Assembly (NCBI GenBank): GCA_963789835.1
Contig: CAWBMF010000011.1
Coordinates: 9,814-73,813, forward strand
Length of the DNA stretch: 64,000 nucleotides
Direction: 5' to 3'
Source: an uncultured delta proteobacterium
GTDB taxonomy: Bacteria; Desulfobacterota; Binatia; Binatales; Binataceae
Shown here: positions 1,305 to 28,828 of the stretch, in pieces
Layout: the number at the start of each line of letters is the position of its first letter
Position numbering within the stretch: the stretch's first letter is position 1
Program-made: the position numbers and the translations under genes
Notes under the pieces: model-generated
The model's database searches: none
Told to the model about the DNA's origin: nothing
Seen by the model: only the letters and a program-made list of their open reading frames with translations

Positions 1305-1596
1305 GTGGGCAGAATGTCTTTCGCGGGTGAGCTTCGAAGGGGCTCTGTACGCTGTTCGCGGACTGCGAGATTCGGGGCGCCAGGAGTCACCGACGCCAGG
1401 CGAAATATTCAAGCTCGCGCGCGAGTTCGACGATCGACGCGAAGCCGACGAGCGCCGCAAGCAGAGGCTGCTGGAGGAGCCGGCCCGAACGCCGGAACAG
1501 ATCGCGGCGGCAAAAAACCTCGTGGCGGATTTCGAGAAACGTATGAATGAACGTAATGATCGAAGACGCCGCGGTTCCCGAATCGTACCGGGGTAG
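1219..1596 (+). CDS. hypothetical protein of the mobile element
   Basis: 125-aa ORF with a charged, Arg/Glu-rich C-terminus; no recognisable family; overlaps its neighbours, so the boundaries are uncertain. Confidence 0.3.
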   Translation: MKQSQAKQVLLKSSTIWTRQPTDEAIQAEWAECLSRVSFEGALYAVRGLRDSGRQESPTPGEIFKLAREFDDRREADERRKQRLLEEPARTPEQIAAAKNLVADFEKRMNERNDRRRRGSRIVPG

Positions 1597-1696
1597 GGGG
1601 ATCAAATCTCTACGATCGGCCGAGCGTTTACCGTATGGCAGCTACACGCGTGTGGCCGCAGGTTGCCCCCTAGGGGGGGTATGCAGGAGGTGGTGG

Positions 1697-2953
1697 ATGG
1701 GGAGTCAGGATTTTCGTGATCGAATCAAAGAGCTCCGTCGGGTGCCAGCGCGAGAGCTTGTGGCGAATCCTCGAAACTGGCGCAAGCACCCCGCTGCCCA
1801 GGCCCAGGCACTTAGGGCGGTGCTAGAGGAGGTCGGCTATGCCGACGTATTGCTGGCGCGCGAGATGCCGGACGGTCGCTTGATGCTGATAGATGGCCAT
1901 CTTCGGGCCGAGACCACACCAGACCAGAACGTGCCTGTTGTGGTCCTCGACGTAGACGAGATCGAAGCAGACAAGATTCTAGCAACCCTCGATCCCCTCG
2001 CCGGCATGGCACAAACGGATAAGCTTGTCGCCCGCGATCTCGCTGACCTGCTTCGAGAATTTAGCGGTGATGGAGTAAATCGGCTACTCGAACAATTGGC
2101 TGGCCGCTCAGTGGGTGAACTGAAAGATCCACCGGCGCAGGTCGACAAGGCTTCTGAACTGATGGCGAAATGGGCGACTCAAACGGGCCAGGTGTGGCAG
2201 ATAGGCCCGCATCGGATGGTATGCGGGGATTGCCGTGATGAGACGGTTGTAGGGCGGCTTTGGCCGAAGGGCGGTCCTAAATTGCGGATGGTCTGGACCG
2301 ATCCGCCCTACGGCGTCGACTATGCGGCGAAGAACGCCTATCTAAACCGCGCCGACCGAGGAAATCGGGTTCAAACTCCAATCGAAAACGACAGTCTGAC
2401 AGCCGCCGAGACAGGAATCGTTTTCAAGCGATCGCTTGAGGTCGCGAAGAAATTCGCCGAGGCGGGTGCGGCCTGCTATGCGACCGTACCGGCCGGTCCA
2501 TTGCTCGTCCACTTCGTTCAAGCACTGACCGCCGCCGGCTTCGGATACCACGCTCAATTGATCTGGGTGAAGCATCAATTTGTGATCGGAATGGCCGACT
2601 ATCACCACCGCTTCGAGCCAATTCTGTACGGTTGGCTGCCCGATGCGGCGCACTACTTCGTCAAGGATCGTACTCAAGACGATGTTTTCGAAGTTGCCAA
2701 ACCTCAGGCGAGCGAATTCCATCCAACCACGAAACCCATCGAGTTGATTGCGCGAATGATCGCCAACAGCAGCCGGCCGGGCGAGATTGTCTTCGATCCA
2801 TTCTGTGGCAGTGGGTCCACCCTGCTCGCCGCGCATCAATTGGAGCGCATTGGCTACGGCGTCGAATTGTCTCCCGCGTATATTGCCGTAGTTCTCGAGC
2901 GATTCGCGGCGCTTGGTGTCGAAGCAGAATTGGTTGGACGCGAGGAATGCTAG
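1697..2953 (+). CDS. ParB-like nuclease domain fused to a DNA N6/N4-methyltransferase (phage-type MTase)
   Basis: The N-terminus 'RVPARELVANPRNWRKH...LIDGHLR' is ParB/Srx-like. 'MVWTDPPYGVDY' is the DPPY catalytic motif and 'VFDPFCGSGSTLLAA' is the SAM-binding FxGxG motif. An in-frame upstream start at 1547 is also possible. Confidence 0.8.
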   Translation: MGSQDFRDRIKELRRVPARELVANPRNWRKHPAAQAQALRAVLEEVGYADVLLAREMPDGRLMLIDGHLRAETTPDQNVPVVVLDVDEIEADKILATLDPLAGMAQTDKLVARDLADLLREFSGDGVNRLLEQLAGRSVGELKDPPAQVDKASELMAKWATQTGQVWQIGPHRMVCGDCRDETVVGRLWPKGGPKLRMVWTDPPYGVDYAAKNAYLNRADRGNRVQTPIENDSLTAAETGIVFKRSLEVAKKFAEAGAACYATVPAGPLLVHFVQALTAAGFGYHAQLIWVKHQFVIGMADYHHRFEPILYGWLPDAAHYFVKDRTQDDVFEVAKPQASEFHPTTKPIELIARMIANSSRPGEIVFDPFCGSGSTLLAAHQLERIGYGVELSPAYIAVVLERFAALGVEAELVGREEC

Positions 2954-3433
2954 ATGAAAACGCCAGGACCGCCACCAACGCCGACTAATCTGAAATTGCT
3001 CAAGGGAAACCCGGGGAAGCGGAAGCTGAACACTAACGAACCGGACCCCGAGCCGGCGATCCCTCCTTGCCCCAATCACCTGGATAAGGTTGCCAAGAAA
3101 GAGTGGCGCAGAATCAGCAAGGAGCTTCTTGCACTCGGAATAATCTCGAGGCTGGATCGCGCCGCTCTTGGCGGCTATTGCGACGCGTACGGACGCTGGG
3201 CGGAAGCGGCGCAACAAATCCAGAAATACGGTCTGGTCTTCAAATCGCCAAGCGGCTACCCGATGCCATCGCCGTATCTCGCGATCCTTCATACTGCGCT
3301 CGACCAGATGCGCGCATTCCTCACGGAATTTGGGCTCAGTCCGGCTTCGCGCTCACGGGTCAAGGTGGCCAATCCCAAGCAGCGTGACCTATTCGGGGAT
3401 TTTCTCGATGGCGACGACGAAGAGGTTGTCTGA
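2954..3433 (+). CDS. phage terminase small subunit, P27 family
   Basis: 'LKGNPGKRKLN...W...L...G.....D...L..YC..Y' N-terminal signature and 'FGLSPASRSRV' C-terminal signature of the P27 TerS family; no large terminase follows. Confidence 0.7.
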   Translation: MKTPGPPPTPTNLKLLKGNPGKRKLNTNEPDPEPAIPPCPNHLDKVAKKEWRRISKELLALGIISRLDRAALGGYCDAYGRWAEAAQQIQKYGLVFKSPSGYPMPSPYLAILHTALDQMRAFLTEFGLSPASRSRVKVANPKQRDLFGDFLDGDDEEVV

Positions 3434-3441
3434 CCGACTCT

Positions 3442-3801
3442 TTGGGCGGTGAGGTATCTGGTGTGGCAGAGGGAAACTCAATTCAGCAAAACGATCCGAA
3501 GCTCGTCGAATGGGCTGGTCGGATCTCGCTCGATCAGATCCCGGGGCTGCTGCTGGTCCTCGCTTCACGCTGGCTGGTCGAGACGTCGGCAAACGCGAAC
3601 GAACAAGACAGTAAACGCGACCCGGGACCGAACCTCGTAACCGCCGGTGAGCTGGCCAAGCACCTCAATCTCCCCGAGTCCTGGGTTCGCACCGAGGAGC
3701 GACTCGGTCGAATTCCAAGCGTCAGGCTCGGCAAATACGTCCGCTTCAGGTTGAGCGATGTGGAACGGAGCCTCGCTCAAAACAAACGCCGCAGGCCATA
3801 A
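3442..3801 (+). CDS. excisionase/MerR-like helix-turn-helix DNA-binding protein
   Basis: C-terminal 'LVTAGELAKHLNLPESWVRTEERLGRIPSVRLGKYVRFRLSDVERSL' resembles an excisionase-family HTH; it sits immediately upstream of the integrase; the true start may be internal. Confidence 0.5.
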   Translation: MGGEVSGVAEGNSIQQNDPKLVEWAGRISLDQIPGLLLVLASRWLVETSANANEQDSKRDPGPNLVTAGELAKHLNLPESWVRTEERLGRIPSVRLGKYVRFRLSDVERSLAQNKRRRP

Positions 3802-3881
3802 ATGGGCCATTTTCCTGCCATTCCGGCAGACTGGATGTCGGTCGCGATCTCACGCTAGTCGTGTCCACCTGAAAGATTGCG

Positions 3882-5120
3882 ATGGCAAGCATCAGAAAAT
3901 TCCATGTCGCCAGCTGCATAGGCAAAGATTGTGGCTGCCTTTGGGTGCTCGATTATCGCCCGCTCGGTTTGTTCGGCCCGCGTCGGCGGGTCCGTTTCAA
4001 GACGCGTAAAAAGGCGGAACGGTTCCAGATCGACACCGTGCAGCAAGCTTCTCGCGGCGAATACGTCGAGCCGGCGAAGGTGCCAACTTTCGGCGAGGTT
4101 GCTGAGGATTGGTTCAAAAGCAAGTTGGGTCGCAGACCTTCTCACACCTTCAATCTTAGAACGCGCCTCGACAAACAAATCCTGCCCGTGATTGGAAAGC
4201 AAAAGCTCGATCGAATCACGGTGGAGGCAGTAGAAAAGCTTCGAGACAAGCTGCGCGAAGAGGAATATGCGCACCGGACCATCAACCGGATCCTTTGGAT
4301 CGTCGGAGCGGTGTTTCGTCTCGCAATCAAACGGGGGCAGTGCTCGAAGAATCCGGTCGACAGCGTCGAGCGCGCGGTTCAACCAGCGCGGGAGCTCAGC
4401 ACCGATGGTCTGCCAGCTGGAACCGGAACGGACGCCATCGATCCCGACAGCGTCCTCAGCCCGAAAGAAATTCAAACTCTGCTGCAGGAAGCAAAGCCCG
4501 GTTTCGAGCGAACCCTCTTCGAGACCGCGTATCTCACGGGAGCGAGACAGGGAGAACTCCTTGCGCTGCGATGGATTGATCTGGAGCTGCCGAAGGAAGG
4601 CTCCGGGAAAATGGTGATCCGCCGGAGTCTGTCCTGGGCCCGGCCGCAGGGCGAGGAGATACGCCCCCGTTACTTCCCACCGAAGACCAAAGCGGGCCGC
4701 CGAACGATCTCCATACCTGCTTTGCTGGTCGCAGAGCTCAAGCGTTGGAAGCTTCAGTGTCCGATCTCGGAAGATGGACTGGTATTTCCGACGATGGACG
4801 GAAAGCCGATGCCGCACGCGAAGATGCTCCAGACCCAATTCTATCCAGCCCTTTCACGAGCGAAGCTGCGGAGGGTTACGTTCCACACTCTGCGCCATAG
4901 TTGTGCTTCGGCAATGATCGCGAGCGGCGCCCCGATAACCGAGGTGCAGCATCGGCTCGGCCACGCCAATCCCGCTATAACCTTGCTTGTGTACTCGCAT
5001 TTTCTGAAGCAATCGGAGAGCGATGTTGCCGACAGGCTCGCCGACGCCCTATTAAACATCCCTTCAGCAACCAGAACTCAAAAAGCGATCGAATCATCAT
5101 CTAGCGCGATTGCGTCATAG
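3882..5120 (+). CDS. tyrosine-type site-specific integrase (phage integrase family)
   Basis: C-terminal catalytic box 'HTLRHSCASAMIASGAPITEVQHRLGHANPAITLLVYSHF' (R...HxxR...Y); an N-terminal SAM-like domain; 412 aa. Confidence 0.9.
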   Translation: MASIRKFHVASCIGKDCGCLWVLDYRPLGLFGPRRRVRFKTRKKAERFQIDTVQQASRGEYVEPAKVPTFGEVAEDWFKSKLGRRPSHTFNLRTRLDKQILPVIGKQKLDRITVEAVEKLRDKLREEEYAHRTINRILWIVGAVFRLAIKRGQCSKNPVDSVERAVQPARELSTDGLPAGTGTDAIDPDSVLSPKEIQTLLQEAKPGFERTLFETAYLTGARQGELLALRWIDLELPKEGSGKMVIRRSLSWARPQGEEIRPRYFPPKTKAGRRTISIPALLVAELKRWKLQCPISEDGLVFPTMDGKPMPHAKMLQTQFYPALSRAKLRRVTFHTLRHSCASAMIASGAPITEVQHRLGHANPAITLLVYSHFLKQSESDVADRLADALLNIPSATRTQKAIESSSSAIAS

Positions 5121-6109: not shown

Positions 6110-7138
6110 ATGACAAACCCCGGCTCCCACAAATACTTGTTCATCGCGGTCGCGTTCGTGCTGACGCTCGTGAACGTCGATTTGTTAAGCGCCCGAGCGC
6201 AAACGCAATCCCCATCTCAGCCTGCAAAGGTGCGAGAGGTCGATTTCACCTATCACACAGAAATTACCGGAATAGATCCGAAGGCCCATCGTGTCGAGGC
6301 CTGGATTCCGCTGCCGCGAGAAGACCGATTCCAGCAGGTAAGCGATCTTAGGATCGACAGTCCAGCGCATGTCGAGGTGGTAAATCAGCCCACCGGCGGA
6401 AATCGCGTTGCGCATCTGCTCGTAAACGTGCCGCCGTCGGGTTCGATACCGGTTACCATCCGCTTCAATGTGCGGCGCGTCGAGGAATCGGCGGATCTGG
6501 AGAAGGCGCAGGCGAACGGTCCGCGGCCGACCGGCGGGGCGTTTGCCGGCTACTTGGGCCCGGACCGCCTAGTTCCGATCGACGGACAAATAAAGCTGGT
6601 AAGCGCCAAGGTGGGCGAACCGGACGGTTCTTCCTACGAACAGGCCAAGGCCATCTACGACTACGTCATTGCGAACATGACCTACGACAAGAGCGGCCAA
6701 GGATGGGGACGGGGCGACGCCATCTATGCGTGCAACGTCAAAAAAGGAAACTGCACCGACTTCCACTCGCTGTTCATCGCGATTGCTCGCTCTCGGGGCA
6801 TTCCGGCGCGTTTTACGATTGGCTTTCCGCTCGGCGCGCCGAGCGCGGGCACAATCCCCGGTTATCATTGTTGGGCGGAATTTTATACCGGCGGCCAGTG
6901 GGTTCCGGTGGACGCATCGGAAGCGTGGAAGCATCCTGACCTGCGCAATTATTATTTCGGCCATCTCGACGCCGGCCGGGTTGCGTTCACGATGGGCCGC
7001 GACCTGGAGCTAACGCCGCGCCAGAGTGGAGAACCGGTTAACTTTCTGATTTATCCGTACGTTGAGGTCGACGGCAAACCGCTGCCAAAAGAGCAGATCA
7101 AAAACAAGTTCGAGTACACGGCGGTTGCTGGTCAGTGA
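6110..7138 (+). CDS. secreted transglutaminase-like cysteine peptidase domain protein
   Basis: Signal peptide 'YLFIAVAFVLTLVNVDLLSARAQ'; Cys-His-Asp core 'GNCTDFHSLFIAIARSRGIPAR...GYHCWAEFY...VPVDAS' typical of the transglutaminase-like superfamily. Confidence 0.75.
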   Translation: MTNPGSHKYLFIAVAFVLTLVNVDLLSARAQTQSPSQPAKVREVDFTYHTEITGIDPKAHRVEAWIPLPREDRFQQVSDLRIDSPAHVEVVNQPTGGNRVAHLLVNVPPSGSIPVTIRFNVRRVEESADLEKAQANGPRPTGGAFAGYLGPDRLVPIDGQIKLVSAKVGEPDGSSYEQAKAIYDYVIANMTYDKSGQGWGRGDAIYACNVKKGNCTDFHSLFIAIARSRGIPARFTIGFPLGAPSAGTIPGYHCWAEFYTGGQWVPVDASEAWKHPDLRNYYFGHLDAGRVAFTMGRDLELTPRQSGEPVNFLIYPYVEVDGKPLPKEQIKNKFEYTAVAGQ

Positions 7139-7174: not shown

Positions 7175-8470
7175 TCAAGCGGAGGAGCTCGTCGCGCGAC
7201 GCTCCCTCGCTGACTTCGCCCACATCCACCCGGCTACGCCTAGAACGGGAACGTACTCAATTACCATGGTCGCCCAGACGGGAAGCGGCCAGTACACTGC
7301 AAGCGAGCTCACGGTCCAGACCGCGAGCGGCAGCATGCGTGGAGTGAAAAGGAACGGGGTAACCCAAACGAGGTACCACGGGAAAATCGTCGGCGCGAAA
7401 AGCAGCGTTACTGCCAGAGGCCAGGCCCAAGCCTCCGGTGAGTCGAGGGGCAAATGCCAACGCGCCCAGAGCGCGACCGCAAATCCGAGAGCGACCGGAA
7501 CGCCGACCAGGCCCTTCGTCGGAAAGACCCACTCGAGCGCTGTATAAACCGGTGCATTGACGCGCCAACGCGCTAAATAGCCTCCGAGCGAGCCGAGCGG
7601 CAACTGACCGTGTCCCAGAAATGGAATATAAAGCGCAGCGAAAATTCCGACGGCTAACACCGCGTCACGGCGGCGGATGCGACCCCAAAAGAGGGGCGTC
7701 AACGGGACCGGAAGAAATTTGACCCCGATCGAGAGCGCGAACGCAACAGCAGAAGCTGTGCGCTTTCCCCGTACCAGCAAAGCTGCGGTGATGACAAGAG
7801 CTAGCGCACCTAAGAGATCCACATGCCCGTTTCCGGCGCCCTCCAGTGCGACTAGCGGATTCCATGCATACGCGAGCACCCACCACCGGCTTCGACCGGA
7901 CGCAGACAGCCACCAAAGGAGAACGGCGACTAAGGCGGCATCACAGAAAAAGGCGGCAGATTTCATCGCGCGCGCTGAATCATCCACCGTTGCGACGCCG
8001 CGAAAAAAAAGCTCGGCAACAGCTGGATACGGCGTCGGGAAATCAGGATGGTTCATCAGCCGAGTCTCGGCAGTGTGCAAATGCCGGACAGCGCTGTCGC
8101 TTGGTACAACCAGGTAAGGATCGTAGCCAAGCCGCTGGATTCTGCCATCCCACACATACCTATAGACATCGGTTGAAAGGGTTGGCGGGCTGAGTAGAAG
8201 GGCAACTCGCCATGCCGCTGCGAGCACAAGGCATAGCGCAAGTCTTCGATTGCTCCTCCCCGCAAACCGGCCGAGAAGCCATACGGTTCGCAGATATGCG
8301 ATCGCTGCCAACGCAGTGCATACGACGAATACGTGCGCGTGTGTTCTTGAATCCAAGAAGGAAATCCCGAGCATGCAACCTGCGATGACTAAACCCCAGC
8401 CGATGACCGCGGCCGGCGCTACGCTCTCCTCCTTCACCACTCGCGTAGCTCCGGCCGGCGGGCGAGCCAC
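7175..8470 (-). CDS. polytopic membrane GT-C type glycosyltransferase (GT87/DUF2029-like)
   Basis: About 10 predicted TM segments; periplasmic-loop motif 'STDVYRYVWDGRIQRLGYDPYL' resembles the DUF2029/GT87 mannosyltransferase signature; the start may be the internal Met. Confidence 0.55.
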   Translation of the reverse strand: MARPPAGATRVVKEESVAPAAVIGWGLVIAGCMLGISFLDSRTHAHVFVVCTALAAIAYLRTVWLLGRFAGRSNRRLALCLVLAAAWRVALLLSPPTLSTDVYRYVWDGRIQRLGYDPYLVVPSDSAVRHLHTAETRLMNHPDFPTPYPAVAELFFRGVATVDDSARAMKSAAFFCDAALVAVLLWWLSASGRSRWWVLAYAWNPLVALEGAGNGHVDLLGALALVITAALLVRGKRTASAVAFALSIGVKFLPVPLTPLFWGRIRRRDAVLAVGIFAALYIPFLGHGQLPLGSLGGYLARWRVNAPVYTALEWVFPTKGLVGVPVALGFAVALWARWHLPLDSPEAWAWPLAVTLLFAPTIFPWYLVWVTPFLFTPRMLPLAVWTVSSLAVYWPLPVWATMVIEYVPVLGVAGWMWAKSARERRATSSSA

Positions 8471-9078
8471 GCGGCCGTTCGCTGGGCGCGGCTAGGAAAT
8501 AAACTAAGCTCGCGAGCCAACCGCGCCAGATCCTCAAACTCATCCACGTCATAACCGGTTTCGGTGAGTGCCACGCGAAGACCCAGGCCTTGCGCACTTG
8601 CCATCAAGGAATCAAGCGCGCTGCCGGTACCCATCTGTTGCGTATCAAACAACTCGGCTTGCGCAGTGTTACTACCTACGAGGTAGTAACCGCCGTCTGT
8701 CGTAGGACCCAATACCACGTCCGCTCCGTCGAGGAGCTGAAAAGCCTTATCGAGAGTCTCCGGCGGCAGTTGAGGGCTATCGCCATCGAGAGCGATCACA
8801 CGGCGGTATCCTCTGTCGATGAAGATGCGAAAGGCCGAGGCGAGGCCGGCGGCAAGACCTTCGCCTTGTTGCCCGACGACTTCGATCGCCGGCAGCCAAC
8901 TGGCGAGATCGGCGACATCTGACGTCGGGCAAACAATGGCAAGTGCGTCAGTTGAGATGGAGTGAGCAAGATCCAAAGTATCTTCAATCAGACATTTATA
9001 GAGTTCGACGACGGCTTCGGCAGGCAGACTGGCGGCGAGTCGAGTTTTCACTTGGCCGACGCGAGCAGCCTTCGCCAT
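8434..9078 (-). CDS. DUF2064 (CofC/MobA-like nucleotidyltransferase-fold) protein; candidate 'transferase 1, rSAM/selenodomain-associated'
   Basis: 'IIMAKAARVGQVKTRLA...ALDGDSPQLP...VLGPTTDGGYYLVG' matches the DUF2064 pattern. The ORF as given extends to 9462 but then overlaps the GT2 gene, so the start was placed at the Met nearest the family N-terminus; an alternative start between 9078 and 9117 is possible. Confidence 0.6.
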   Translation of the reverse strand: MAKAARVGQVKTRLAASLPAEAVVELYKCLIEDTLDLAHSISTDALAIVCPTSDVADLASWLPAIEVVGQQGEGLAAGLASAFRIFIDRGYRRVIALDGDSPQLPPETLDKAFQLLDGADVVLGPTTDGGYYLVGSNTAQAELFDTQQMGTGSALDSLMASAQGLGLRVALTETGYDVDEFEDLARLARELSLFPSRAQRTAAWLARRPELREW

Positions 9079-9119
9079 TATGATCAGGGCACGTTCACGA
9101 ATCGCTGAACCCACCTGTT

Positions 9120-9902
9120 TCAAACGTTCCCCTCGCCCTTCGAAGTGCTGTCGAGGAGCTGATACTTGAAGATCGCGCCGAGGATACCCCAGGCCGCGCC
9201 AATGCTTCCTCGCAAGGTACCGCTTATCTTCGACGAGCCGATCCGGGGATGATAGCTCACCGGCACTTCGGTGATTCGAAGTCCCTGCCGCGCGCCTTTC
9301 ACGATCATCTCGACCGGCCATCCATATGTCGTTTCCCGTAACCCGAGCGCAAGCAGCGCTTGATAGCGCGCTGCTCGGAACGGACCAAGATCCGTGAGGC
9401 GGACACCGTTGAATAAAGCGATCAGGCGAGCCGCGAGACGATTGCCGAACACCGCATGCCAAGGCATAGCGCCTGCTGTCCGCTCGCCCGCCAGGCGCGA
9501 GCCGATGACGATATCCGCGGTGCCCTGCCGCAGTGGCTCCAGCAGACGAGACATCTCCACGGGACGGTCACTGTAGTCTCCGTCCAGGAACACGACGACG
9601 TCTGGAGCATTGACTGCAGCCAGGCCGGTGAGACAGGCGCGACCATAGCCACGCCGCGGCTCATGCAGAACCTCGGCCCCCATCTGGCGCGCAATCTGCG
9701 CGGTTCCGTCGGTTGAATCGCTGTCGACGACAATCACTTGTTCGACCATTCCAGCCGGAATATCGGCCAGAACGAGGCCGATGGATTGGGCTTCATTGTA
9801 CGCAGGAATGACTACCGAGACGCGCACAGATTCAGATTGGAAGCTGCGGCCAGCGCCGTGCGAGCGCGACGTCGACTGCAGCGCGCTCACCCGACGGTCC
9901 AA
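9120..9902 (-). CDS. family 2 glycosyltransferase; candidate 'transferase 2, rSAM/selenodomain-associated'
   Basis: 'VSVVIPAYNEAQSIGLVL...VIVVDSDSTDGT...VVVFLDGDYSD' is the GT-A fold DxD architecture of GT2 enzymes. Confidence 0.8.
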   Translation of the reverse strand: MDRRVSALQSTSRSHGAGRSFQSESVRVSVVIPAYNEAQSIGLVLADIPAGMVEQVIVVDSDSTDGTAQIARQMGAEVLHEPRRGYGRACLTGLAAVNAPDVVVFLDGDYSDRPVEMSRLLEPLRQGTADIVIGSRLAGERTAGAMPWHAVFGNRLAARLIALFNGVRLTDLGPFRAARYQALLALGLRETTYGWPVEMIVKGARQGLRITEVPVSYHPRIGSSKISGTLRGSIGAAWGILGAIFKYQLLDSTSKGEGNV

Positions 9903-10350
9903 GAGTCAGCGCGGCAGCTAAGGCCATTGGAATCAACAGCTCCCATATCCAGCTGAGGCCCCACTCCGAGACCCACAGGCCGGTCAGCAATCCAAACGCA
10001 ACGAGCGCGGCAAATCGGGAAAAAAAACCGAGGACGAGCGCCACTCCGAGGCTCGCTTCAAGAACCCCCTGCAGAGGACCGGTTACCGCGGCGTGGGCGG
10101 CGGTGAATCCCATCACGTGCTTCCAAAGTGTCGGCGCGTGACCATATTGGATGTAGTAATGGATCAATCCCGCGTATCCTTTGGCGGTGTACAGCTCTTT
10201 GTGAAGGTTCTCGAAGAAGGTCGACACGAATAGTGCGCCGAGCGCGACCCTTAGTATCGCGAGCGCGAGCGCGGCGTCGAGGGTGGGCAGTTTGGAGTTC
10301 CTCAAGATTTGCGCTCCTCGCGCTCTTGAGCGCCGAACACGGTGGTGCAA
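9832..10350 (-). CDS. DoxX family membrane protein
   Basis: Four-TM small protein with 'LAILRVALGALFV...GLLTGLWVSEWG' DoxX-like segments; its 5' end overlaps the GT2 gene, so the true start is probably internal. Confidence 0.55.
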   Translation of the reverse strand: MHHRVRRSRARGAQILRNSKLPTLDAALALAILRVALGALFVSTFFENLHKELYTAKGYAGLIHYYIQYGHAPTLWKHVMGFTAAHAAVTGPLQGVLEASLGVALVLGFFSRFAALVAFGLLTGLWVSEWGLSWIWELLIPMALAAALTLGPSGERAAVDVALARRWPQLPI

Positions 10351-11348
10351 GCACTCCCAGCCTTCGAGAATTGTCGCAAGCTTCCGGCGCGGCTGGCGAA
10401 TGTAGGCAGAGGCTTTCCCGCAACGAACGGGCAGAACTCATCGGGCAGGTCTAATCCTCCCCGCAGTAGCCGCCGACTCGGACAGCCGCCGCGGCACGAA
10501 TCGATGAAGCGACAATTCGCGCAAAACTGCGGAATTTGATCCAGCTCGCGGAAAGCCGGTGAGTCGACAATCGCCGCTCCCCGTTCTTCAAGCTCAGCCA
10601 GCCCGATAGTCCGCTTCGGCCAATAGACGCATGGGAGCACTTCGCCTTTCGGCGTGACGCGGATGGTACCCTTTCCGCAACCGCCCGAAACAGCGTCGAA
10701 TCCAAGAATCGCGCGCACGATAGGTTCATTGCACACGGCTAATGGACAGGATTCCAGCAGCCTCTGAAAGCCAGTCCAGAACTGCTCATAGTCGAGTGAG
10801 AAGGCATCCGTTTTGACAGGCTGATAGACATTGATCCGGAAATTTGCCCCGTGCCGGGCGGCGACCGCCCCTATCTCGGGGAGCTTGTCATAGTTGGTCC
10901 GCATCATAACGGCGATAATCGTGACCGAGACTCCAAGTCCTAGAACCCGCGCCGTCTGATCGAGCACAAGCTGCCAGTTCCCCGGACCACGCCAAGAATC
11001 CTGCTCAGGCTCGGTCGCGAAGTCCAGTGAAAACTCGAGATCAGCGAAAGCGCGCAGCTCATCATCGCTTAGGACCGCTGCCGAGTAGCCATTTGAAGTC
11101 AGCGCTATCGTGGTGCCGCGCTCGCGCAAGTACTGCAGGATCGCGTGAAACTCCGGATGAAGTCCGTTCTCACCGGTTCCAAGGTTCACCGATCGAACCG
11201 GCACATTTTCGCAAACGCGCCGAACGTCCTCGAGCGACAGACGATCAATCCGACCTGTATCGCGATAGCAATGAGCACAGGCAAGATTGCACTCGTTGGT
11301 GAGCCCAAGGCCGATCGAAAAACCATCGCCGCCAGATTGTTTCATCAT
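10302..11348 (-). CDS. radical SAM enzyme with a C-terminal Cys-rich (SPASM-like/'selenodomain') extension
   Basis: Cx3Cx2C cluster 'TNECNLACAHCY' near the N-terminus; C-terminal 'CANCRFIDSCRGGCPSRR...FCPF' cysteine-rich domain. Confidence 0.85.
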   Translation of the reverse strand: MMKQSGGDGFSIGLGLTNECNLACAHCYRDTGRIDRLSLEDVRRVCENVPVRSVNLGTGENGLHPEFHAILQYLRERGTTIALTSNGYSAAVLSDDELRAFADLEFSLDFATEPEQDSWRGPGNWQLVLDQTARVLGLGVSVTIIAVMMRTNYDKLPEIGAVAARHGANFRINVYQPVKTDAFSLDYEQFWTGFQRLLESCPLAVCNEPIVRAILGFDAVSGGCGKGTIRVTPKGEVLPCVYWPKRTIGLAELEERGAAIVDSPAFRELDQIPQFCANCRFIDSCRGGCPSRRLLRGGLDLPDEFCPFVAGKPLPTFASRAGSLRQFSKAGSACTTVFGAQEREERKS

Positions 11349-11481
11349 CTCGGCCTATCACTTACGGACACGATAATGCACCAACAGCGTGCTGTATCTC
11401 AAATGAACGAGAGTCATGAAACCGTCGTCGCCGTTGATCGACTGGACCGACGAGAACTCAAGCAGGGATCGAATTCCTACC

Positions 11482-11642
11482 TATTTCAGTCGCGTTATAG
11501 CTCCCGATAATGGGACCAAGCTCGCGGATGGCTTGGACGTATGTTCGCCCTGGAATTAACAATGGGCTGCGGTTTGCTCATCAGAGTGGCGCAATTTTCT
11601 TGAGCATCTGGGGAAATCCTAATCGCTAGGCCGCACGCCGAC
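11482..11642. repeat. ~150-bp direct repeat, copy B (partner of 5113-5262)
   Basis: Same shared blocks as copy A; lies between the radical SAM gene's upstream region and the 3' end of the cyclase/STAND gene. Confidence 0.7.
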
Positions 11643-11714: not shown

Positions 11715-14700
11715 CTACATCAATCGATCGAGCACCTGGCGTGCTTCTATCAAGTCGAGCGTGTCATGGCCTTCGGTAAAACTGGAATACAATGGCTCAA
11801 GCAGGTTCCGAGCTTCCAGATTCGAGTTGCGCGACACCAGTAGAGTCGCCAAGCAGGTGGCCGCGCGCAGTTGAATAGGTTTAGCGCCGATTCGTGCTGC
11901 GGACGCGATAGCCTCGCGAAAGCATTGCTCAGCTCCTTCTGGGCGATCAGCAGTTACCGAACTCTGAGCACTCGATTCGCAAGGTAATGGTCCCGCTTTC
12001 TCGACCAGCAGTTTACCCTTGACCCAAAGTAGGTATGGTTGCCACGCTTCCTCCTCGGCAGAAGAAGCAATGGCGTCGACCACCGTCGCTAGCGCCTCCT
12101 CATGCAGGCCGGCCGCTCCCTCGGCTTCTGCGAGCATACCGAGGAAGAACCAGAGCCCCACGCGTGTACCTGGTGCGATGTAGTCAGATACACCCTTGCG
12201 CACAACCGCTAGGCCGTCTAGCACCTTCCCTTCGTTCAGCATGACCCAGCCATTAAGAATTTCGCTCGAAGCGGAAAAAAAAGGAAAATTCTGGCCCGCA
12301 ACCAGTGAGGCGAGCACCTTTGCATGCGTTTTCACTTGGATTGGGTCGCGTAGGTATACGGAAAGCACACCAGCGAAGTGCTCGGCGAAAGCGAGGTCGT
12401 TAGGTTTATTTAGGCGTTGCGCAATGTCGAGAACTTCGCGCATTTGTTCGCGCGCCAGATTGATCTCTCCCAGGTGCCACGAGGCCCAACTCTGATGGGC
12501 GAGAGCAGTAACGCCCGGATCTTGCGGGCCGAACAAATGGTCCTCGCGTCGGTAGTGTGAATAAGCGATTGCCGCGTGATCGCGGGCTCTCTGGAAATCC
12601 CCCAAATAGAATCTGCTCATCGTTTGAGCCGTGTTAGCCCAAACTATCGCGAGTACTCCGCCATCTCTTGTTGCGAGTGTAAGTAGTTCATTTGCGAGAG
12701 TTAGACCGAGGCCCTTCTCCCCTCTAGTAAGCGACGATATGTAAAGGCCAAGCAACACGAACAAGAGATTCATCGTGTTCCCGATCTTGTCGCCCAGAGA
12801 ACGGGCCTTGGCATATGCTTCCAGCGTCTCTGGCGCGGCGTACCCAAATAGAAAAGTCGAAACGTGGCCTAATCCTATCCATAGGAGCATTTCGCGCTGC
12901 GAACGCTGAGGACTCTCAGGGAGGTGTGTCAGCTCTGCAAGGGCGCGATTGTAGTATTCTTTCGCTTCAGGAAACGCACCGCGTATTACCGCCCGCTCAC
13001 CAGCCGCTTGCCAGGACGCAGACGAGCGATCGGCATCACCGGCGGCACTGTGGTGGATTGCCAGGACTTCGGGCTCCATCTGTGCGAGCTGGCCAAACTC
13101 ACGCTCGAGTACGGATGCGATTTTTCCATGCAATTGCTTGCGCTGCGCTTTAAGCAGAGCTTCGTACGCCGAGTCCCGAATCAGAGCGTGCTTGAAGGTA
13201 TAGGTTGAATCGGGCGGTAGACCCCTCTGGTAGACGACATCCGCGTCGACCAATCGTTCGAGGTGTGACTCGAGTTCACTATCCGAGAGCTCTGTAACGG
13301 AACGAATGAGTTGGTAGGAGAAGTCACGCCCAATTGTCGCTCCGACCTGGGCCACTTCCTTCGCGCCGCCCAGACGATCCAACCTCCCCATTAGCGAGTC
13401 TTGCAGGCTCTCTGGGATATCCGTGCCCGTAACGCGTGCGCCGCCCTCCAACAGCGATCGAACCATTTCTTCAACAAACAGCGGCACCCCGCCTGTTTTC
13501 TCTACAACTGCGTCCACAACTTTTCGTTCTAACGCGCTGCGCGATGCAACCTGCGCAACTAGGTCACGTATCTCAAGATCATTTAGGGGAGAAAGATTGA
13601 GTTGGGTATGATGTGCCCGAATCTTCCAAGGGATGCGGAATTCCATCCTCGCGGAACCAATGAAGAAGAGCGGCAACGCGCCAGCTTGATCCACGATCAC
13701 CTTGAGCAATTCGAGCGTGGAGGTGTCCGCCCAATGCAAGTCTTCCATCACAAGAACTGCGGGTTGAACCCTAGCGAGACCGAACAGCCACTGTGCGAGC
13801 GTGTTGATGAGCCGGTTATGTTGATCTTCGGGATAGGCTACCAAGGGTGGATATTTGTTCGAAACCGGAAGGCCGAGCAGTGACGCGATCAGTGGAACGG
13901 CTTCGGCTAGTTTGATGCCGGAAAGCTCCAACGAGCGTTCGATTTGGGTGATTCGCTCATCTGCCGGCTCATCGCCCCGCCAAGCGAATCCCTGCTGGAG
14001 CATCTCCGAGACGGCGAAAAACGGCGTGTTTTGATAGAAAGGAGCGCCGCCGCACTCAATCCAGGTATGCGGCACGTCGCCGATTAGATCGTGCGCCTTT
14101 TGGATTAGTCGTGACTTTCCGATTCCGGCTTCACCGACCACCAGTACGACTTGCCCAGAACCTGTTCGTGCCCTGTCCCATCGCGTTTGGAGTATCCTAA
14201 GTTCCTCTTCCCTTCCAATAAACGGGGTCAAGCCGCGTCCGCGGGCTGCGGCATTCACCCGCTGACGTACGCCACTAACCTGGACAACTTTGTAGAGTCG
14301 TACGGGCTCGGGAATCCCCTTGAGTTGTCGAGCGCCCTGGCTCTGGATGACGAACACCCCGGGAACCAGCTTGTTGACGGCATCGGTGATTAGAATCGAA
14401 TTCGATCCAGCTTCTGATTGAACTCTGGCGGCGATATTTGGCGTATCGCCGAACACATCAGGTGCTTCGCCACCTCCGTGGGATACCACCACAAATCCGG
14501 CATCAATGCCGATTCGAACCGGCAACTGTGACCGCCCTTCGTTCTTGAGACTCTGATTCAACAATTCCATTGCTTGAAGCAGCGCGAGGCTGGCACGTAC
14601 CGCTCTCTCCGCATCGTCTTCGTGAGCCTCCGGGTAACCGAAGAACACCAAGACACCGTCACCCAGGTACCTTACGATGGTTCCCCCGAAGAGCGTGACG

Positions 14701-15059
14701 GCTTCGCCAACGACGTTCCGATATGCCGAGATCAAACTGAGCCAGTCCTCGGGATCGAGGCCGGCGGCGGTTGCGGTCGAGTCGACAATATCGCAGAACA
14801 AGACCGTGAGATGTCGGCGCTCCGCGCCAGCAGCGTCCAAAGCCCCGAGGGGGTCCGCGTGGAGATTATGAGATCCGCGTGGAGTAGCAGATTCCGAATT
14901 CCCTGAGTCGGGAAGTGAGGATCCGCAATCGGAACAGAAACGCGCGTTGCGCGGAGATCGCGCGCCGCAGGCATGGCATATTCGCTCGAGCGGCGTGCCG
15001 CAATTTGCGCAGAAGCCTTTTCCTTCTAGAGCCTCGCTATTACAGCTCGAGCAATGCAT
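11715..15059 (-). CDS. Zn-ribbon / class III adenylate-guanylate cyclase / AAA (STAND-type) ATPase / TPR multidomain protein
   Basis: Double Zn-ribbon 'CSSCN...CANCG...CHACG...CSDCG'; cyclase 'RRHLTVLFCDIVDSTA...RIGIDAGFVVV'; Walker A 'VVGEAGIGKSRL'; long TPR-like C-terminus; 1114 aa. Confidence 0.85.
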   Translation of the reverse strand: MHCSSCNSEALEGKGFCANCGTPLERICHACGARSPRNARFCSDCGSSLPDSGNSESATPRGSHNLHADPLGALDAAGAERRHLTVLFCDIVDSTATAAGLDPEDWLSLISAYRNVVGEAVTLFGGTIVRYLGDGVLVFFGYPEAHEDDAERAVRASLALLQAMELLNQSLKNEGRSQLPVRIGIDAGFVVVSHGGGEAPDVFGDTPNIAARVQSEAGSNSILITDAVNKLVPGVFVIQSQGARQLKGIPEPVRLYKVVQVSGVRQRVNAAARGRGLTPFIGREEELRILQTRWDRARTGSGQVVLVVGEAGIGKSRLIQKAHDLIGDVPHTWIECGGAPFYQNTPFFAVSEMLQQGFAWRGDEPADERITQIERSLELSGIKLAEAVPLIASLLGLPVSNKYPPLVAYPEDQHNRLINTLAQWLFGLARVQPAVLVMEDLHWADTSTLELLKVIVDQAGALPLFFIGSARMEFRIPWKIRAHHTQLNLSPLNDLEIRDLVAQVASRSALERKVVDAVVEKTGGVPLFVEEMVRSLLEGGARVTGTDIPESLQDSLMGRLDRLGGAKEVAQVGATIGRDFSYQLIRSVTELSDSELESHLERLVDADVVYQRGLPPDSTYTFKHALIRDSAYEALLKAQRKQLHGKIASVLEREFGQLAQMEPEVLAIHHSAAGDADRSSASWQAAGERAVIRGAFPEAKEYYNRALAELTHLPESPQRSQREMLLWIGLGHVSTFLFGYAAPETLEAYAKARSLGDKIGNTMNLLFVLLGLYISSLTRGEKGLGLTLANELLTLATRDGGVLAIVWANTAQTMSRFYLGDFQRARDHAAIAYSHYRREDHLFGPQDPGVTALAHQSWASWHLGEINLAREQMREVLDIAQRLNKPNDLAFAEHFAGVLSVYLRDPIQVKTHAKVLASLVAGQNFPFFSASSEILNGWVMLNEGKVLDGLAVVRKGVSDYIAPGTRVGLWFFLGMLAEAEGAAGLHEEALATVVDAIASSAEEEAWQPYLLWVKGKLLVEKAGPLPCESSAQSSVTADRPEGAEQCFREAIASAARIGAKPIQLRAATCLATLLVSRNSNLEARNLLEPLYSSFTEGHDTLDLIEARQVLDRLM

Positions 15060-15301: not shown

Positions 15302-18300
15302 TTATACGTTCAATTCGTCGAGGAGCGCCTTGGCGTCCTTCAAGTCGGCGGTGTCGAAGCCTTCGGTAAACCATGCGTAGATCGGCGCGAGGAGATCGCG
15401 CGCTTCTGAGGGTTTGCCCTGATCGCGCCACAGGCGCGCAAGGGTGGTCGCCGTGCTCAACTCGAAGGACTTCGCCCCCTGCGCTCGAGCAAAGTCGAGG
15501 GCGCGATGGAAATGGGCCTCAGCTTCGGCGATTGAGCCACCGCTGGCGAGAATAATCTCGCCCTGCAACCGATTCAATTCGGAATCGAATAGTCCCTGCC
15601 CCGTCTGGGCAGCGATAGCAAGTCCTGCCGCTGCCGCACCGCGCGCCTCTGTTAACTGACTCGCGGTCAAGTAAGCCTCGCTGAGCAGCGCGAATAAGAC
15701 CGGTGCGCCGCCTTGGTTGCCTGTCTCGGCTACGAGTGCGAGTCCCGCTACTAGATCGGCGATCGACTCGGACTCGCCTGCTGCCACGCGCGCCGCCGCG
15801 TATAGCGCTCTGCCGAGGCCAAGCCACAGCGGAAATCCGTGTGCCTCGCTCAGCGCAATCGTTTCAGCCGCATTCTCGCGTTGTCCTGTTATCTCGCGCC
15901 GACGCCAGTGCACAAAAGCTTTGAAGAAGAGGGCATTGGCTAGAGCGAACGGATAACCGAGCCGTCGAGCCATATCGACCGCATCCCCTGAGCTGGTGAT
16001 TGCCCGATCCAGCCATCCAAGGATCGAGAGATCATTCGCGATCCAAACCAGTAAAGGGGGACCGAGATCCTCAGCTATTGCCCCGTAGCCTTGTCCTGGC
16101 GAGTACAAAGCTTGCCCCGTCTCGAGATGGGCGAGCGCAGAAGCGAACTTGCCCTGGTAGGTTTCAGCAGTACCGATATCAAAATGTCCACTAACCGCTA
16201 GGTGCCTGTCGCCGGTCTGCTCCGCGATCGTCAACATGCGAGCGCCCACCACACACGCGCGCTCGACCAGTCCGGAGTTGAGAGCGAAAAGCGCCAGGCC
16301 GTCGAGAGCAAACCCTAGACGGGCATCGCCCGTGGTCTCGCATAGGACGCGCGCTCGGTCGTATGCAACCTCGACTTCAACGTGTGCATAGCCCTTTGCA
16401 GCCGTTAGCGACTGGCAGAGGGTAAGCTGAAGCTGTATCTCGAGAAGTTCTCGTTCCATGCCTTCTGGTTGCGACGCCAGCAGAATGATTGCTTTGCGTA
16501 GATGGCGAATCGCTTCCTCGTGTGCCGAGCGCGATTGAGCCTGCCCGCCAGCGCGCTGATAGGCGGCGATTGCCTCGCCGATCCTTCCTGCCGCCTCCGC
16601 GTGGCGCGCAAGCAGCTCCGGCTCGGCTGCCGCGGTCTCCGGGAACGTTGCCATCAGTACGTCGACGACGTGACCGTGAAGTTGCTGACGGGTGCGCTTG
16701 AGCAGGGAATCGTAAGCTGCTTCCTGTACCAGTGCGTGCTTGAACGCGTAGACGGCCTCGGGCGGCTCGCCGCGCACAAACACGATCTCCCCCTCGGCCA
16801 GGCGGGCCAATCCTTGCTGCAGGGCGGCTTGGTCCATTCCTGCGACTGCAGCCAGGAGAGAATACGAGAACTCGCGCCCGAGCACCGCGGCCCGTTGTGC
16901 CACTTCCTTGGCTGCCGAGAGGCGGTCAAGGCGCGCCATCAGGGAATCCGCTATGGTCGCAGGGATTGCCTCGACTACACGCGCCGCGCCAGGCTCCACC
17001 ATCGCTTTGGTCAACTCCTCGAGGTAGAGCGGTACGCCGTCGGCGCGAGCGACCAGTGCTTCGAGCGTGTCCTGCGGCAATTTCTCGGCCAAAAGCGACG
17101 CGACCATATCGCGAGCTTGGCGTTTGGTCAGGCGTTGGAGCGAGAGCGTAGTCGTGTTCTGTCGCGCCGACCACTGCGGCGTGAACTCGGGCCGCGCCGT
17201 AGCGAGCAACAGCACCCGCGCCGTCGCGCTTTGTTCGATCAAGCGCCCAACCACCTCCAGCGACGATGCGTCGCACCAGTGTAGATCCTCAACCAACACG
17301 ACAAGCGGTTGCGCTTCGCTCAGCGCTAGGCTCCATTCGGCAAGCAGATCGATCGTTCTGTGGCGCTGGAGGTCGGGGTTCATCTGCAGCGGTATAGGAG
17401 TCTGAAGGCCCAACAAGTCTGCCATCAGTGCAACCTTGTCTGTCGAGGCCAGTGCACCCAGACCGGTTTCGAGCTTCTTCAGCTTCTCTACCAGCGTATC
17501 TTCAGGCTTGAAGGCGAGTGCCTGTGACACCAGCGCGATCACGGGATGGAAAGGCGTGCCTACAGTGTACGGCGTGGCGCCGCACTCCAGCCAAGTATGG
17601 GGCACGGCGTTGAGGCGCTCATGGAGCTGGTAGGCAAGCCGCGACTTGCCGACGCCGGCCTCGCCCTGAATCAGAGCGTTCTGCCCTTCGCCATCCTGCG
17701 CCCGCTCCCAACGCTCTACCAGGGTCGCCAGTTCAACTTCGCGACCGACGAACGGTGTGAGCCTCCCCGAGGCGACATCGAGCCGGCTGCGCACGCCGCT
17801 TGGCCTCACAGCTCGATAGAGCGTCACCGGCTCGCGCACGCCCTTGAGCGCTTGCGGACCGAGGTCTTCGAGCACGAACATCCCCGCGACGAGCCGCTGA
17901 GTCGCCGCGGTGACGGCAACCGTATCGGGCTCCGCAGCCGTCTGGACTCGCGCAGCCACGTTTGCGGTCTCGCCGAAGACCTCGTCGCCACCCGTGACCA
18001 CCACGGGACCTGTGTGCATGCCAATTCGCACCTGCAGGCGCGGCCCGCCCTTGGCGGCGAGCGTTGAATTGAGCGACACCATTGCTTCTAAAATTGCGAG
18101 TCCCGCACGAATGGCGCGCTCGGGATCGTCCTCGTGCGCGGCAGGCCAGCCGAAGTAGATGAGCAAGCCATCTCCGAGCTTCCGGGCGAGATGTCCGCCG
18201 AATCGCACGACTGCGCTTGCCGCGATCTGTTGGTACTGCTCGATGATGTCGCGACATTCCTCGGCGTCGAGCTGCTGCGAGAGCGGAGTCGATCCAACGA

Positions 18301-20297: not shown

Positions 20298-20601
20298 CCG
20301 TTCTTTGAGACGCGCAAACTTGTGCGTCTGTTATCCCCTTCGGTGGTCTGCAGGATTTCGACCGCGACCCGTGTAGTCGCCTTGTAGAACCGTACGGCGG
20401 CCGCCGGTATTGGATCAATGGTGCGAGGGCGTTTGTTGTGATATGCCGCGAAGCGCCAGCCTGCTGCGAGGTCAAGCAAAACGTGCCCGACCCTCGCGGC
20501 CACATTTTTCAGATCAGCCCGAGCTTCATCGACGCGTTCCAGTTGCGACTGTGGCGGAATTTCTTCGGTCTCAAAACCGAAATCGAAAATTGTGGGCAGT
20601 A

Positions 20602-20702: not shown

Positions 20703-20746
20703 TCCCCTTGCACGCGTTGAGCGATTGATCGGGACCGTTGCGACAA

Positions 20747-28813: not shown

Positions 28814-28828
28814 GGCAGGCTGCACTCA

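Follow-up and report, generated by a model that had tools for sequence, protein, structure and literature searches.

A radical SAM/SPASM, DoxX, GT2, DUF2064 and GT-C gene cassette in Binatia and other uncultured bacteria: a candidate system for envelope glycosylation with a lipid-linked sugar

A 64,000-nucleotide stretch of an uncultured Binataceae genome (GenBank assembly GCA_963789835.1, contig CAWBMF010000011.1; the whole stretch is henceforth called the window) contains a tight minus-strand operon which combines a radical S-adenosylmethionine (rSAM) enzyme with a SPASM domain, a DoxX-family membrane protein, a family 2 glycosyltransferase (GT2), a DUF2064 protein and an integral membrane glycosyltransferase of the GT-C type. 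The reading favored here, at a probability of roughly 0.45 and hence a little below even odds, is that this locus decorates a cell-envelope glycoconjugate (a glycolipid, lipoglycan, polysaccharide or protein) via an extracytoplasmic route that uses a lipid-linked sugar. What would be new, and unprecedented, on this reading is the addition of an rSAM/DoxX/DUF2064 module to the known lipid-linked-sugar/GT-C type of glycosylation, which represents a second rSAM context for the TIGR04282 family. Literature searches on DUF2064, TIGR04282 and combinations of rSAM, DoxX and GT-C returned nothing on this cassette, nor was the joining of rSAM chemistry to a lipid-linked-sugar/GT-C envelope route found in them. 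At the same time, the cassette is one among many uncharacterized rSAM neighborhoods and its mechanism is inferential.

Organization of the operon

The interval flagged by an earlier reading of the window (the original prediction), 8434-11348, holds four minus-strand genes, and the region 7175-11348 holds five, preceded by a conserved upstream region:

10302-11348, minus strand: radical SAM/SPASM enzyme, 348 aa; Pfam Radical_SAM, NCBIfam TIGR04085
9832-10305, minus strand: small membrane protein of the DoxX family, 157 aa, with 3-4 hydrophobic helices; Pfam DoxX, DoxD
9120-9827, minus strand: GT2 glycosyltransferase, 235 aa, soluble; Pfam Glycos_transf_2
8434-9114, minus strand: DUF2064/TIGR04282-family protein, 226 aa; TIGR04282, Pfam DUF2064
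7175-8470, minus strand: integral membrane glycosyltransferase of the GT-C type, 431 aa, with about 9-10 hydrophobic segments
11349-11446, minus strand: conserved segment upstream of the rSAM gene, about 100 nt long, with which the conserved module ends on the right

In the direction of the minus strand the order is rSAM > DoxX > GT2 > DUF2064 > GT-C, with all genes overlapping or at most 5 nt apart. Gene starts were set from the window sequence together with the positions of stops in homologues: the DoxX gene begins with a TTG at 10305 that overlaps the TGA stop of the rSAM gene by 4 nt (TTGA), the GT2 gene with a GTG at 9827, 4 nt past the DoxX stop, and the DUF2064 gene with a GTG at 9114, 5 nt past the GT2 stop, while the DUF2064 and GT-C genes overlap by 37 nt. 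A 342-aa open reading frame (ORF) at 8434-9462 is too long, the DUF2064 gene proper being the 226-aa version. Hydropathy profiles detect no helices in the rSAM, GT2 and DUF2064 proteins, 3-4 in DoxX and about 9-10 in the GT-C protein. Within the region upstream of the rSAM gene, a sigma-70-like site at 11402-11373 matches at 9 of 12 positions, which is weak evidence. The tight operon structure, the identities of the genes at the superfamily level and their co-occurrence across phyla (see below) are established. The original prediction had described the rSAM, DUF2064 and GT2 genes as adjacent and co-directional, in the company of DoxX, a GT-C (GT87-like) protein and a transglutaminase-like protein; the shared direction and all three neighbors stand, but the adjacency does not, as DoxX lies between the rSAM and GT2 genes.

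Conservation of the gene set across phyla

Metagenomic relatives of the rSAM at 65-95% identity are numerous, with some labelled Binataceae. The family is narrow: of the 1.84 billion representatives in a library, matches at E <= 1e-30 come from only 196 clusters. A genome scan recovered 78 loci, 68 of which encode an rSAM relative with a score of 180 bits or more; of these 68, 54 have a GT2 gene no farther than 9 kb from the rSAM gene, 49 a DUF2064 gene and 39 a GT-C gene, with many contigs ending early. Thirty loci, comprising 9 Binatia-like versions and 21 from other phyla, have enough flanking sequence to count as complete. Among these, GT2 and, by automatic detection, DUF2064 each occur in 28, DoxX/DoxD-like proteins in 26 and GT-C in 23, such that the company of the rSAM with DoxX and GT-C, remarked upon in the original prediction, recurs across genomes. 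The DUF2064 count becomes 29/30 once locus L012 is added, in which the ORF caller had fused the DUF2064 and GT-C genes. The Binatia-like loci have DoxX, GT2 and GT-C in 9/9 cases and DUF2064 in 8/9 (9/9 allowing for the L012 fusion), and those of other phyla have DUF2064 in 20/21, GT2 in 19/21, DoxX/DoxD-like proteins in 17/21 and GT-C in 14/21. In the complete loci the cassette genes lie on the strand of the rSAM gene, with the sole exception of one DoxD-like gene.

Metagenome-assembled genomes (MAGs) of Binatia, Blastocatellia, Rokubacteria, Chloroflexi and Desulfobacterota contain the gene set in at least six gene orders (rSAM2, second rSAM/SPASM protein; MT, methyltransferase):

Binatia: rSAM > DoxX > GT2 > DUF2064 > GT-C
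Blastocatellia: DoxD > rSAM > DUF2064 > GT-C > rSAM2 > GT2
Rokubacteria: GT-C > rSAM > GT2 > rSAM2 > DUF2064 > DoxD
Chloroflexi: MT > rSAM > (NUDIX) > DoxD > DUF2064 > GT2 > rSAM2
Syntrophobacteraceae-type: GT-C > GT2 > MT > rSAM > rSAM2 > DUF2064 > DoxD
Desulfobacterales: GT-C > DUF547 > GT2 > rSAM > rSAM2 > DUF2064

The retention of the set despite this shuffling of gene order argues for a functional linkage between its members. Nearly all the lineages in which this compact cross-phylum gene set was found here are uncultured ones from soil and sediment.

Versions outside Binatia show further genes, namely a second rSAM/SPASM protein (19/21), a class I methyltransferase (10/21) and a NudE/NudK-like NUDIX hydrolase (5/21), the last of which sits inside the Chloroflexi cassettes. 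Chloroflexi also encode an additional divergent, weakly GT87-like membrane protein, and Desulfobacterales an additional membrane GT2 of the glycolipid-synthase type. The best match of the second rSAM is 'tungsten cofactor oxidoreductase maturase' (136 bits against a cut-off of 380). For the methyltransferase it is an ArsM-type model (78.9 bits against 510), with UbiE/MenG models at 70-74 bits; neither the window module nor the 9 complete Binatia loci encode a methyltransferase.

Certain more distant or reduced loci were also recovered. A Blastocatellia locus (L026, 9944-12053) pairs the rSAM with a 322-aa DoxD-like protein beside a 336-aa ORF and lacks GT2, DUF2064 and GT-C within 9 kb, which hints that the rSAM and DoxX/DoxD form a minimal working pair. 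Relatives at 33-35% identity in Fermentibacteria-type MAGs (L062, L064-L066 and L070; e.g., L065:7072-19055) reside in a different cluster with three further rSAM genes (one B12-binding), two methyltransferases and a MobA-like NTP transferase, adjoining a molybdopterin oxidoreductase; this looks like a cofactor-maturation context. The best match in a plasmid collection, on the Enterococcus plasmid NZ_CP040462.1 (L081, 136426-137601), is a 27%-identical rSAM matched over residues 11-337, whose neighbors, another rSAM, an inorganic diphosphatase, a large AMP-binding protein and an MFS transporter, belong to an unrelated natural-product-like cluster.

The glycosyltransferases, DUF2064 and DoxX proteins

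The GT2 protein matches Pfam Glycos_transf_2 with 79.7 bits. Its top NCBIfam matches, all under their cut-offs, are AglJ (135.7 bits against 325), dolichyl-phosphate hexose transferase (89.7 against 375) and PpgS (64.9), and its closest solved structure is the Pyrococcus furiosus Dol-P-Man synthase (5mlz; E 3.9e-12), aligned over residues 22-228 and thus near full length, followed by matches to GpgS (N-terminal half only) and, again over the full length, to ArnC. In these comparisons the GT2 resembles synthases of the dolichyl/polyprenyl-phosphate hexose type. For the GT-C family, 17 of 20 aligned sequences (the window protein and 19 orthologues) match Pfam GT87, and the family profile matches the structure of GPI mannosyltransferase 1 (PIG-M) with E 2.6e-6. 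An invariant D101-x-Y-R-Y-x-W-D108 motif follows the third hydrophobic segment. The DoxX protein passes the Pfam cut-offs for both DoxX (PF07681; 27.7 vs 23.6) and DoxD (25.5 vs 22.7).

The DUF2064 protein passes TIGR04282 (148.6 bits vs 134), as the original prediction had proposed, and the same model gives 179.2 and 192 bits for its orthologues in other phyla. It also matches Pfam DUF2064 (84.4 bits), the CofC model TIGR03552 below its cut-off (58.5 against 105) and the PDB structure 3cgx (E 4e-15). Since the alignment displays CofC/MobA-type motifs, namely AKxxxxGxVKTRL, D(G/S)DSPxLP and GPxxDGGYYL, these motifs, together with knowledge of the family, point to a probable CofC/MobA-like nucleotidyltransferase.

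The passage of the TIGR04282 threshold raises the question of the relationship to another rSAM cassette. TIGR04167, TIGR04282 and TIGR04283 formerly bore the names 'radical SAM/Cys-rich domain' and 'rSAM/selenodomain-associated transferases 1 and 2', and the original prediction had assigned the rSAM, DUF2064 and GT2 genes to this trio as a cassette of unknown function. That description of the trio is out of date, as TIGR04167 is now named in NCBIfam for the arsenosugar enzyme ArsS, which has been characterized. ArsS makes 5'-deoxy-5'-dimethylarsinoyl-adenosine (PMC13598754). The two cassettes share an rSAM beside a TIGR04282-passing DUF2064 protein and a GT2, and some non-Binatia versions add a class I methyltransferase. 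However, the window rSAM reaches only 26.9 bits on TIGR04167 against a cut-off of 300, confined to the N-terminal core (residues 15-131), and has a SPASM domain in place of the Cys/Sec-rich domain of ArsS, such that only the core fold is shared. Likewise, the GT2 reaches 49.1 bits on TIGR04283 against 182 over its N-terminal 83 residues only and is better matched by AglJ, in line with its similarity to Dol-P-hexose synthases. Actual membership in the ArsS cassette is refuted by these two scores. Of the three family assignments in the original prediction, one holds, that of DUF2064; the failure of DUF2064 or GT2 to match the rSAM-associated equivalogs, which the prediction had named as evidence against itself, is seen for GT2 alone.

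A broader form of this explanation would have the locus as a member or analogue of the organoarsenical (arsenosugar) cassettes, with the rSAM adenosylating a small substrate and DUF2064 and GT2 processing a 5'-substituted nucleoside. The DUF2064 scores (179-192 bits outside the window), the adjoining rSAM and GT2, and the ArsM-type model as the top NCBIfam match of the non-Binatia methyltransferase (78.9 bits) would fit it. However, the module in Binatia has no methyltransferase and thus no ArsM, the ArsM-like score elsewhere is far under its cut-off of 510 and equals the generic UbiE similarity, and the added GT-C and DoxX proteins have no place in an arsenosugar pathway. We consider this explanation quite improbable. 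By its NCBIfam label the DUF2064 gene would be annotated as an 'arsenosugar biosynthesis glycosyltransferase', whereas its partners here are a different rSAM, a different GT2, DoxX and GT-C; therefore, TIGR04282 proteins serve at least two distinct rSAM contexts, and the DUF2064 gene ought not to inherit a name based on arsenic.

The radical SAM/SPASM enzyme

The rSAM core (Pfam Radical_SAM, 50 bits vs 29.5) contains an invariant Cx3Cx2C motif formed by C20, C24 and C27, and its Cys-rich C-terminus, which the original prediction had correctly recognized along with the core motif, is a canonical SPASM domain. It passes TIGR04085 (36.9 vs a cut-off of 27), falls narrowly under the Pfam SPASM cut-off (20.0 vs 21.5) and displays the full 7-Cys pattern C224-x10-G-x4-C240; C276-x2-C279-x5-C285-x3-C289; C306. 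Past this domain lies a C-terminal tail, FxKAxSACTxVF with C334 in the window protein, whose consensus [KR]xxS[AIV]CTT[VI] is kept in every phylum sampled (approximately rSAM residues 317-348, window 10302-10400). Further, the customary eighth SPASM cysteine upstream, C206, is absent from the Rokubacteria versions and some Desulfobacterales versions, and the Chloroflexi orthologues lack the first cysteine of the CX2CX5CX3C block. This pattern of conservation suggests that the ligand set of the auxiliary clusters has been rearranged, with C334 as a candidate auxiliary-cluster ligand.

The original prediction had also entertained selenocysteine (Sec), in some lineages, in the C-terminal domain of the rSAM. 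No in-frame stop occurs at any rSAM cysteine column across the 78 homologous loci; hence, the tRNA-Sec of the window, whose presence is borne out at 28891-28986 (ARAGORN; Rfam 72.4 bits), has no apparent link to the rSAM.

A proposed lipid-linked-sugar route to envelope glycosylation

A glycosylation pathway is proposed because GT2 and GT-C together form the signature pair of lipid-linked-donor glycosylation and are the most constant and interpretable partners in the cassette, and because known systems of this kind vary the flippase family and recruit donor-tailoring enzymes. The nearest parallels are the three-component systems, i.e., GtrA/GtrB/Gtr-type GT-C, ArnC/ArnEF/ArnT, and polyprenyl-phosphoribose synthase/MATE/GT136, in which a GT2, a GT-C protein and a small polytopic membrane protein are likewise encoded by one operon; these systems vary the family of the flippase, and auxiliary enzymes act on the lipid-linked donor (PMC11127046). 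In contrast to them, the present cassette has DoxX in the position of the GtrA/MATE/SMR flippase, and its rSAM/SPASM and DUF2064 proteins have no counterpart in any described system. A second parallel is the actinobacterial polyprenol-phosphomannose pathway (Ppm1 with PimE/MptA/MptB), which produces lipomannan and lipoarabinomannan: here too a DPM-synthase-like GT2 is combined with a GT87/MptB-like GT-C protein, and the Desulfobacterales versions of the cassette add the glycolipid-synthase-type GT2. It differs in that the similarity is weak, the phyla are others and rSAM, DoxX and DUF2064 are added.

In the pathway proposed, whose every chemical step we infer, the soluble DUF2064 protein would activate a phosphorylated precursor as a nucleoside diphosphate (NDP)-linked donor, and the GT2, judging from its likeness to Dol-P-Man synthase, AglJ and PpgS, would load the sugar on polyprenyl phosphate on the inner side of the membrane. 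The soluble rSAM/SPASM enzyme, whose translation is coupled to that of DoxX and which probably docks on this protein, would carry out a radical, probably oxidative, tailoring of the sugar or the lipid-linked sugar, with its two auxiliary clusters passing the abstracted electron to the quinone pool via DoxX. After translocation, the GT-C protein would transfer the modified sugar to the acceptor at the outer face. Outside Binatia, the second rSAM/SPASM, methyltransferase and NUDIX proteins could perform further tailoring of an NDP-linked intermediate, with which the NUDIX gene of the Chloroflexi cassettes is consistent, and the glycolipid-synthase-type GT2 of Desulfobacterales hints at a glycolipid as the acceptor.

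The electron route from the rSAM through DoxX to the quinone pool is proposed by analogy to anSME and BtrN, two SPASM/twitch enzymes of the dehydrogenase type, and to DprE1. The pair DprE1/DprE2 performs a redox epimerization of decaprenyl-phosphoribose ahead of its use by a GT-C enzyme, with the electrons passing to the membrane quinone pool; DprE1/DprE2 (a flavoenzyme system) and rSAM/SPASM with DoxX are unrelated enzymes, and the mechanistic analogy is a hypothesis. The specific proposition that rSAM/SPASM and DoxX constitute a membrane-docked radical oxidoreductase acting on a polyprenyl-phosphate- or NDP-linked sugar, with the electron delivered to the quinone pool and DUF2064 providing an unusual NDP-donor, is doubtful. 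If true, it would be the first rSAM step in an extracytoplasmic (GT-C) glycosylation pathway, would provide the first assigned function for DUF2064 and for this clade of DoxX, and would imply that the envelopes of Binatia, Rokubacteria, Chloroflexi and Desulfobacterota contain a sugar not seen before. The five-gene unit is suited to heterologous expression and bears on how SPASM enzymes of the dehydrogenase type dispose of electrons in vivo.

Several observations weigh against the glycosylation reading. Every score of the GT2 and GT-C proteins lies under the curated cut-offs of the named equivalogs, and the window GT-C protein on its own yields just a sub-threshold MptB match (21.8 against 40) and no Pfam match. 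Scans of the module found no family match to a flippase (GtrA, MATE, SMR or Wzx), leaving DoxX as its sole small membrane protein, nor any genes for sugar-nucleotide biosynthesis. To our knowledge DoxX has no known role in glycosylation, and the Binatia DoxX proteins show weak similarity to the DoxD-like proteins of the other phyla (E 7e-5 over 68 aa). NCBIfam names the TIGR04282 proteins glycosyltransferases, rather than nucleotidyltransferases. Finally, the nearest sequence relatives of the rSAM, MftC and PqqE, are peptide-modifying enzymes: the best NCBIfam match is MftC (93 bits against a cut-off of 265), and other maturases follow (GeoRSP 60.7, SbtM 47.3 and AlbA 37.5 bits; equivalog cut-offs 340-850). 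Nor does structure assist, for the AlphaFold2 model (pLDDT 80.5) retrieves BlsE, SuiB, SkfB, PqqE, anSME and DesII about equally in Foldseek, the TM-scores by query length lying between about 0.4 and 0.65; judged on this model, the fold match cannot separate the peptide-acting from the sugar- or nucleotide-acting class.

These affinities raise the alternative that the locus is a peptide or protein maturation system, in which the SPASM enzyme cross-links or oxidizes a ribosomal peptide or a secreted protein and GT2 and GT-C glycosylate the product. The best sequence and fold matches of the enzyme are indeed to the SPASM maturases (MftC, PqqE, anSME, SuiB, SkfB; also GeoRSP and the sactipeptide maturases by sequence) as well as to the sugar-acting BlsE and DesII, with which it shares the Cx3Cx2C core and the full 7-Cys motif. 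Candidate substrates would be the transglutaminase-like and 244-aa secreted accessory proteins of the Binatia module (see below) or the rSAM's own conserved tail, whose S[AIV]CTT[VI] segment retains its cysteine in all phyla. However, the enzyme widely misses the cut-offs of all maturase equivalogs, and indeed of every named NCBIfam equivalog, passing the generic SPASM domain model only; it differs from the maturases further in its extra C-terminal Cys tail, the variable C206 and its coupling to DoxX. Family-library scans found no match to an RRE (recognition element for RiPPs, peptides made by ribosomes and then modified post-translationally) or PqqD domain in any cassette protein, and the rSAM core begins at residue 10. 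Lists of small ORFs around the rSAM gene and across the module gave no conserved candidate for a precursor peptide and left no space for one, the gaps being at most 60 nt and the conserved leader only about 100 nt. The secreted accessory proteins are absent outside Binatia, while the five core genes persist. The original prediction had named, as evidence against itself, a SPASM maturase family scoring better alongside an adjacent precursor peptide: the former holds, with MftC outscoring ArsS by 93 to 26.9 bits, but there is no adjacent precursor, and the cassette is thus not a recognized RiPP system. Overall, maturation of a peptide or protein seems unlikely.

The membrane component and the non-Binatia accessory genes allow yet another explanation, namely that what is modified is a cofactor or a membrane lipid, such as an isoprenoid quinone, rather than a glycan, with DoxX binding the quinone or lipid, the rSAM and a UbiE-like methyltransferase tailoring it and the glycosyltransferases glycosylating it. 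The DoxX/DoxD family is quinone-linked; the methyltransferase has UbiE/MenG scores of 70-74 bits, the rSAM and DoxD stand alone in the reduced Blastocatellia locus, the 33-35% identity relatives lie beside MobA-like, B12-rSAM and molybdopterin oxidoreductase genes, and the second rSAM has a tungsten cofactor oxidoreductase maturase model as its best match. Against this, all of the supporting matches are far under their cut-offs, the module has no quinone or cofactor biosynthesis genes, and the most constant partners, the DPM-synthase-like GT2 and the GT87-like GT-C protein, point instead to a lipid-linked sugar donor. Such a lipid or cofactor modification is, in our estimate, not likely. Glycosylation of the envelope with a lipid-linked sugar remains the reading we prefer.

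The cassette as part of a relocatable module

In the window the operon belongs to a 6.2-kb module that lies exactly between two direct repeats and includes two accessory plus-strand genes, with a phage-like element to its left:

6110-7138, plus strand: 342-aa secreted protein with a transglutaminase core, bearing a signal peptide and the residues of a Cys-His-Asp triad; Pfam Transglut_core 97 bits
5315-6049 (ORF from 5255), plus strand: secreted protein with no family match, 244 aa
5070-5260: left copy of a direct repeat of about 190 nt, beginning with 50 nt that form the 3' end of the integrase gene
11450-11640: right copy of this repeat, about 80% identical to the left
300-5120, plus strand: compact integrative element resembling a phage or satellite, bordering the module on its left

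Both accessory genes converge on the minus-strand operon, and among the 30 complete loci both proteins are confined to the Binatia-like ones. A transglutaminase-like gene is present in 6 of the 9 complete Binatia loci, and in a clade at 64-69% identity it lies directly upstream of the rSAM gene and is co-directional with it. The 244-aa protein has more than 7000 'hypothetical' relatives, but no match in Pfam, NCBIfam or PADLOC, and its AlphaFold2 model (pLDDT 57.6) found no significant match in Foldseek.

Nucleotide homology to 15 related Binatia loci extends from about 5267 to about 11386-11446, i.e., to the inner edges of the repeats, at 85-91% identity in the closest genomes and 78-85% in L013-L015. 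In contrast, the 10-kb flanks of 12 related genomes are essentially without mutual homology, excepting short extensions just beyond the cassette end that are shared by L003 and L006 and by L011 and L012. On account of these sharp ends and the unrelated flanks in related genomes, the 6.2-kb module behaves as a relocatable unit, in agreement with the repeat-flanked, mobile-looking island of the original prediction, and it could serve as an example of a relocatable envelope-modification unit. Additionally, 3 of 10 loci checked have flanking direct repeats of their own, different in sequence (100-150 nt, 76-84% identical):

L003: 9244-9346 and 17140-17242
L008: 9527-9632 and 17242-17348
L012: 9671-9817 and 15732-15878

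In L012 a third copy lies 6 kb upstream. The repeat of about 190 nt in the window has no Rfam match, is absent from the related loci and was not recovered in two exact-core scans of metagenome contigs; a consensus fold from its two copies was uninformative, and its interpretation as a short coding sequence was unconvincing.

The adjacent element encodes an HTH_36 protein, an N6/N4 DNA methylase, a Terminase_4 small subunit (TerS), an HTH_17 excisionase-like protein and a tyrosine integrase (3882-5120). The position of the repeat-bracketed module beside these genes, together with its unrelated flanks in related genomes, might be taken to indicate anti-phage defense cargo with a viperin-like rSAM, and the rSAM does show a PADLOC match to pVip (37.7 bits) and has viperins among its fold matches. 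However, the pVip match is limited to residues 14-109 of the shared rSAM core, the NCBIfam viperin score is 27 against 180, and we know of no viperin with a SPASM domain. The other six proteins have no PADLOC match, and neither the integrase nor the phage-like genes of the window occur near the cassette in any other locus. A defense function is therefore very improbable.

Other features of the window

Immediately to the right of the module lie two minus-strand genes for paralogous giant signaling proteins (11715-15059 and 15302-18463), each combining a zinc ribbon, an adenylate/guanylate cyclase and an AAA_16 ATPase, with a TPR match in the second only; in PADLOC they show generic PycC cyclase similarity only.

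Downstream of the tRNA-Sec gene by 1.5 kb, an interval in which no convincing gene is found, the plus-strand gene at 30471-32723 encodes a 750-aa molybdopterin oxidoreductase in an uninterrupted ORF with no in-frame TGA. The tRNA-Sec gene is itself involved in a duplication of 105 nt (20601-20705 and 28828-28932; 92% identical), which comprises the 63 nt upstream of it and 42 nt of the gene itself, from its start through the anticodon. Between the two copies, 8.2 kb of DNA encode an enoyl-CoA hydratase, a short-chain dehydrogenase/reductase, two family-III CoA transferases, a TetR regulator, a thiolase and a nitronate monooxygenase, with no integrase, and the duplication looks like the result of an insertion or rearrangement at the tRNA-Sec gene.

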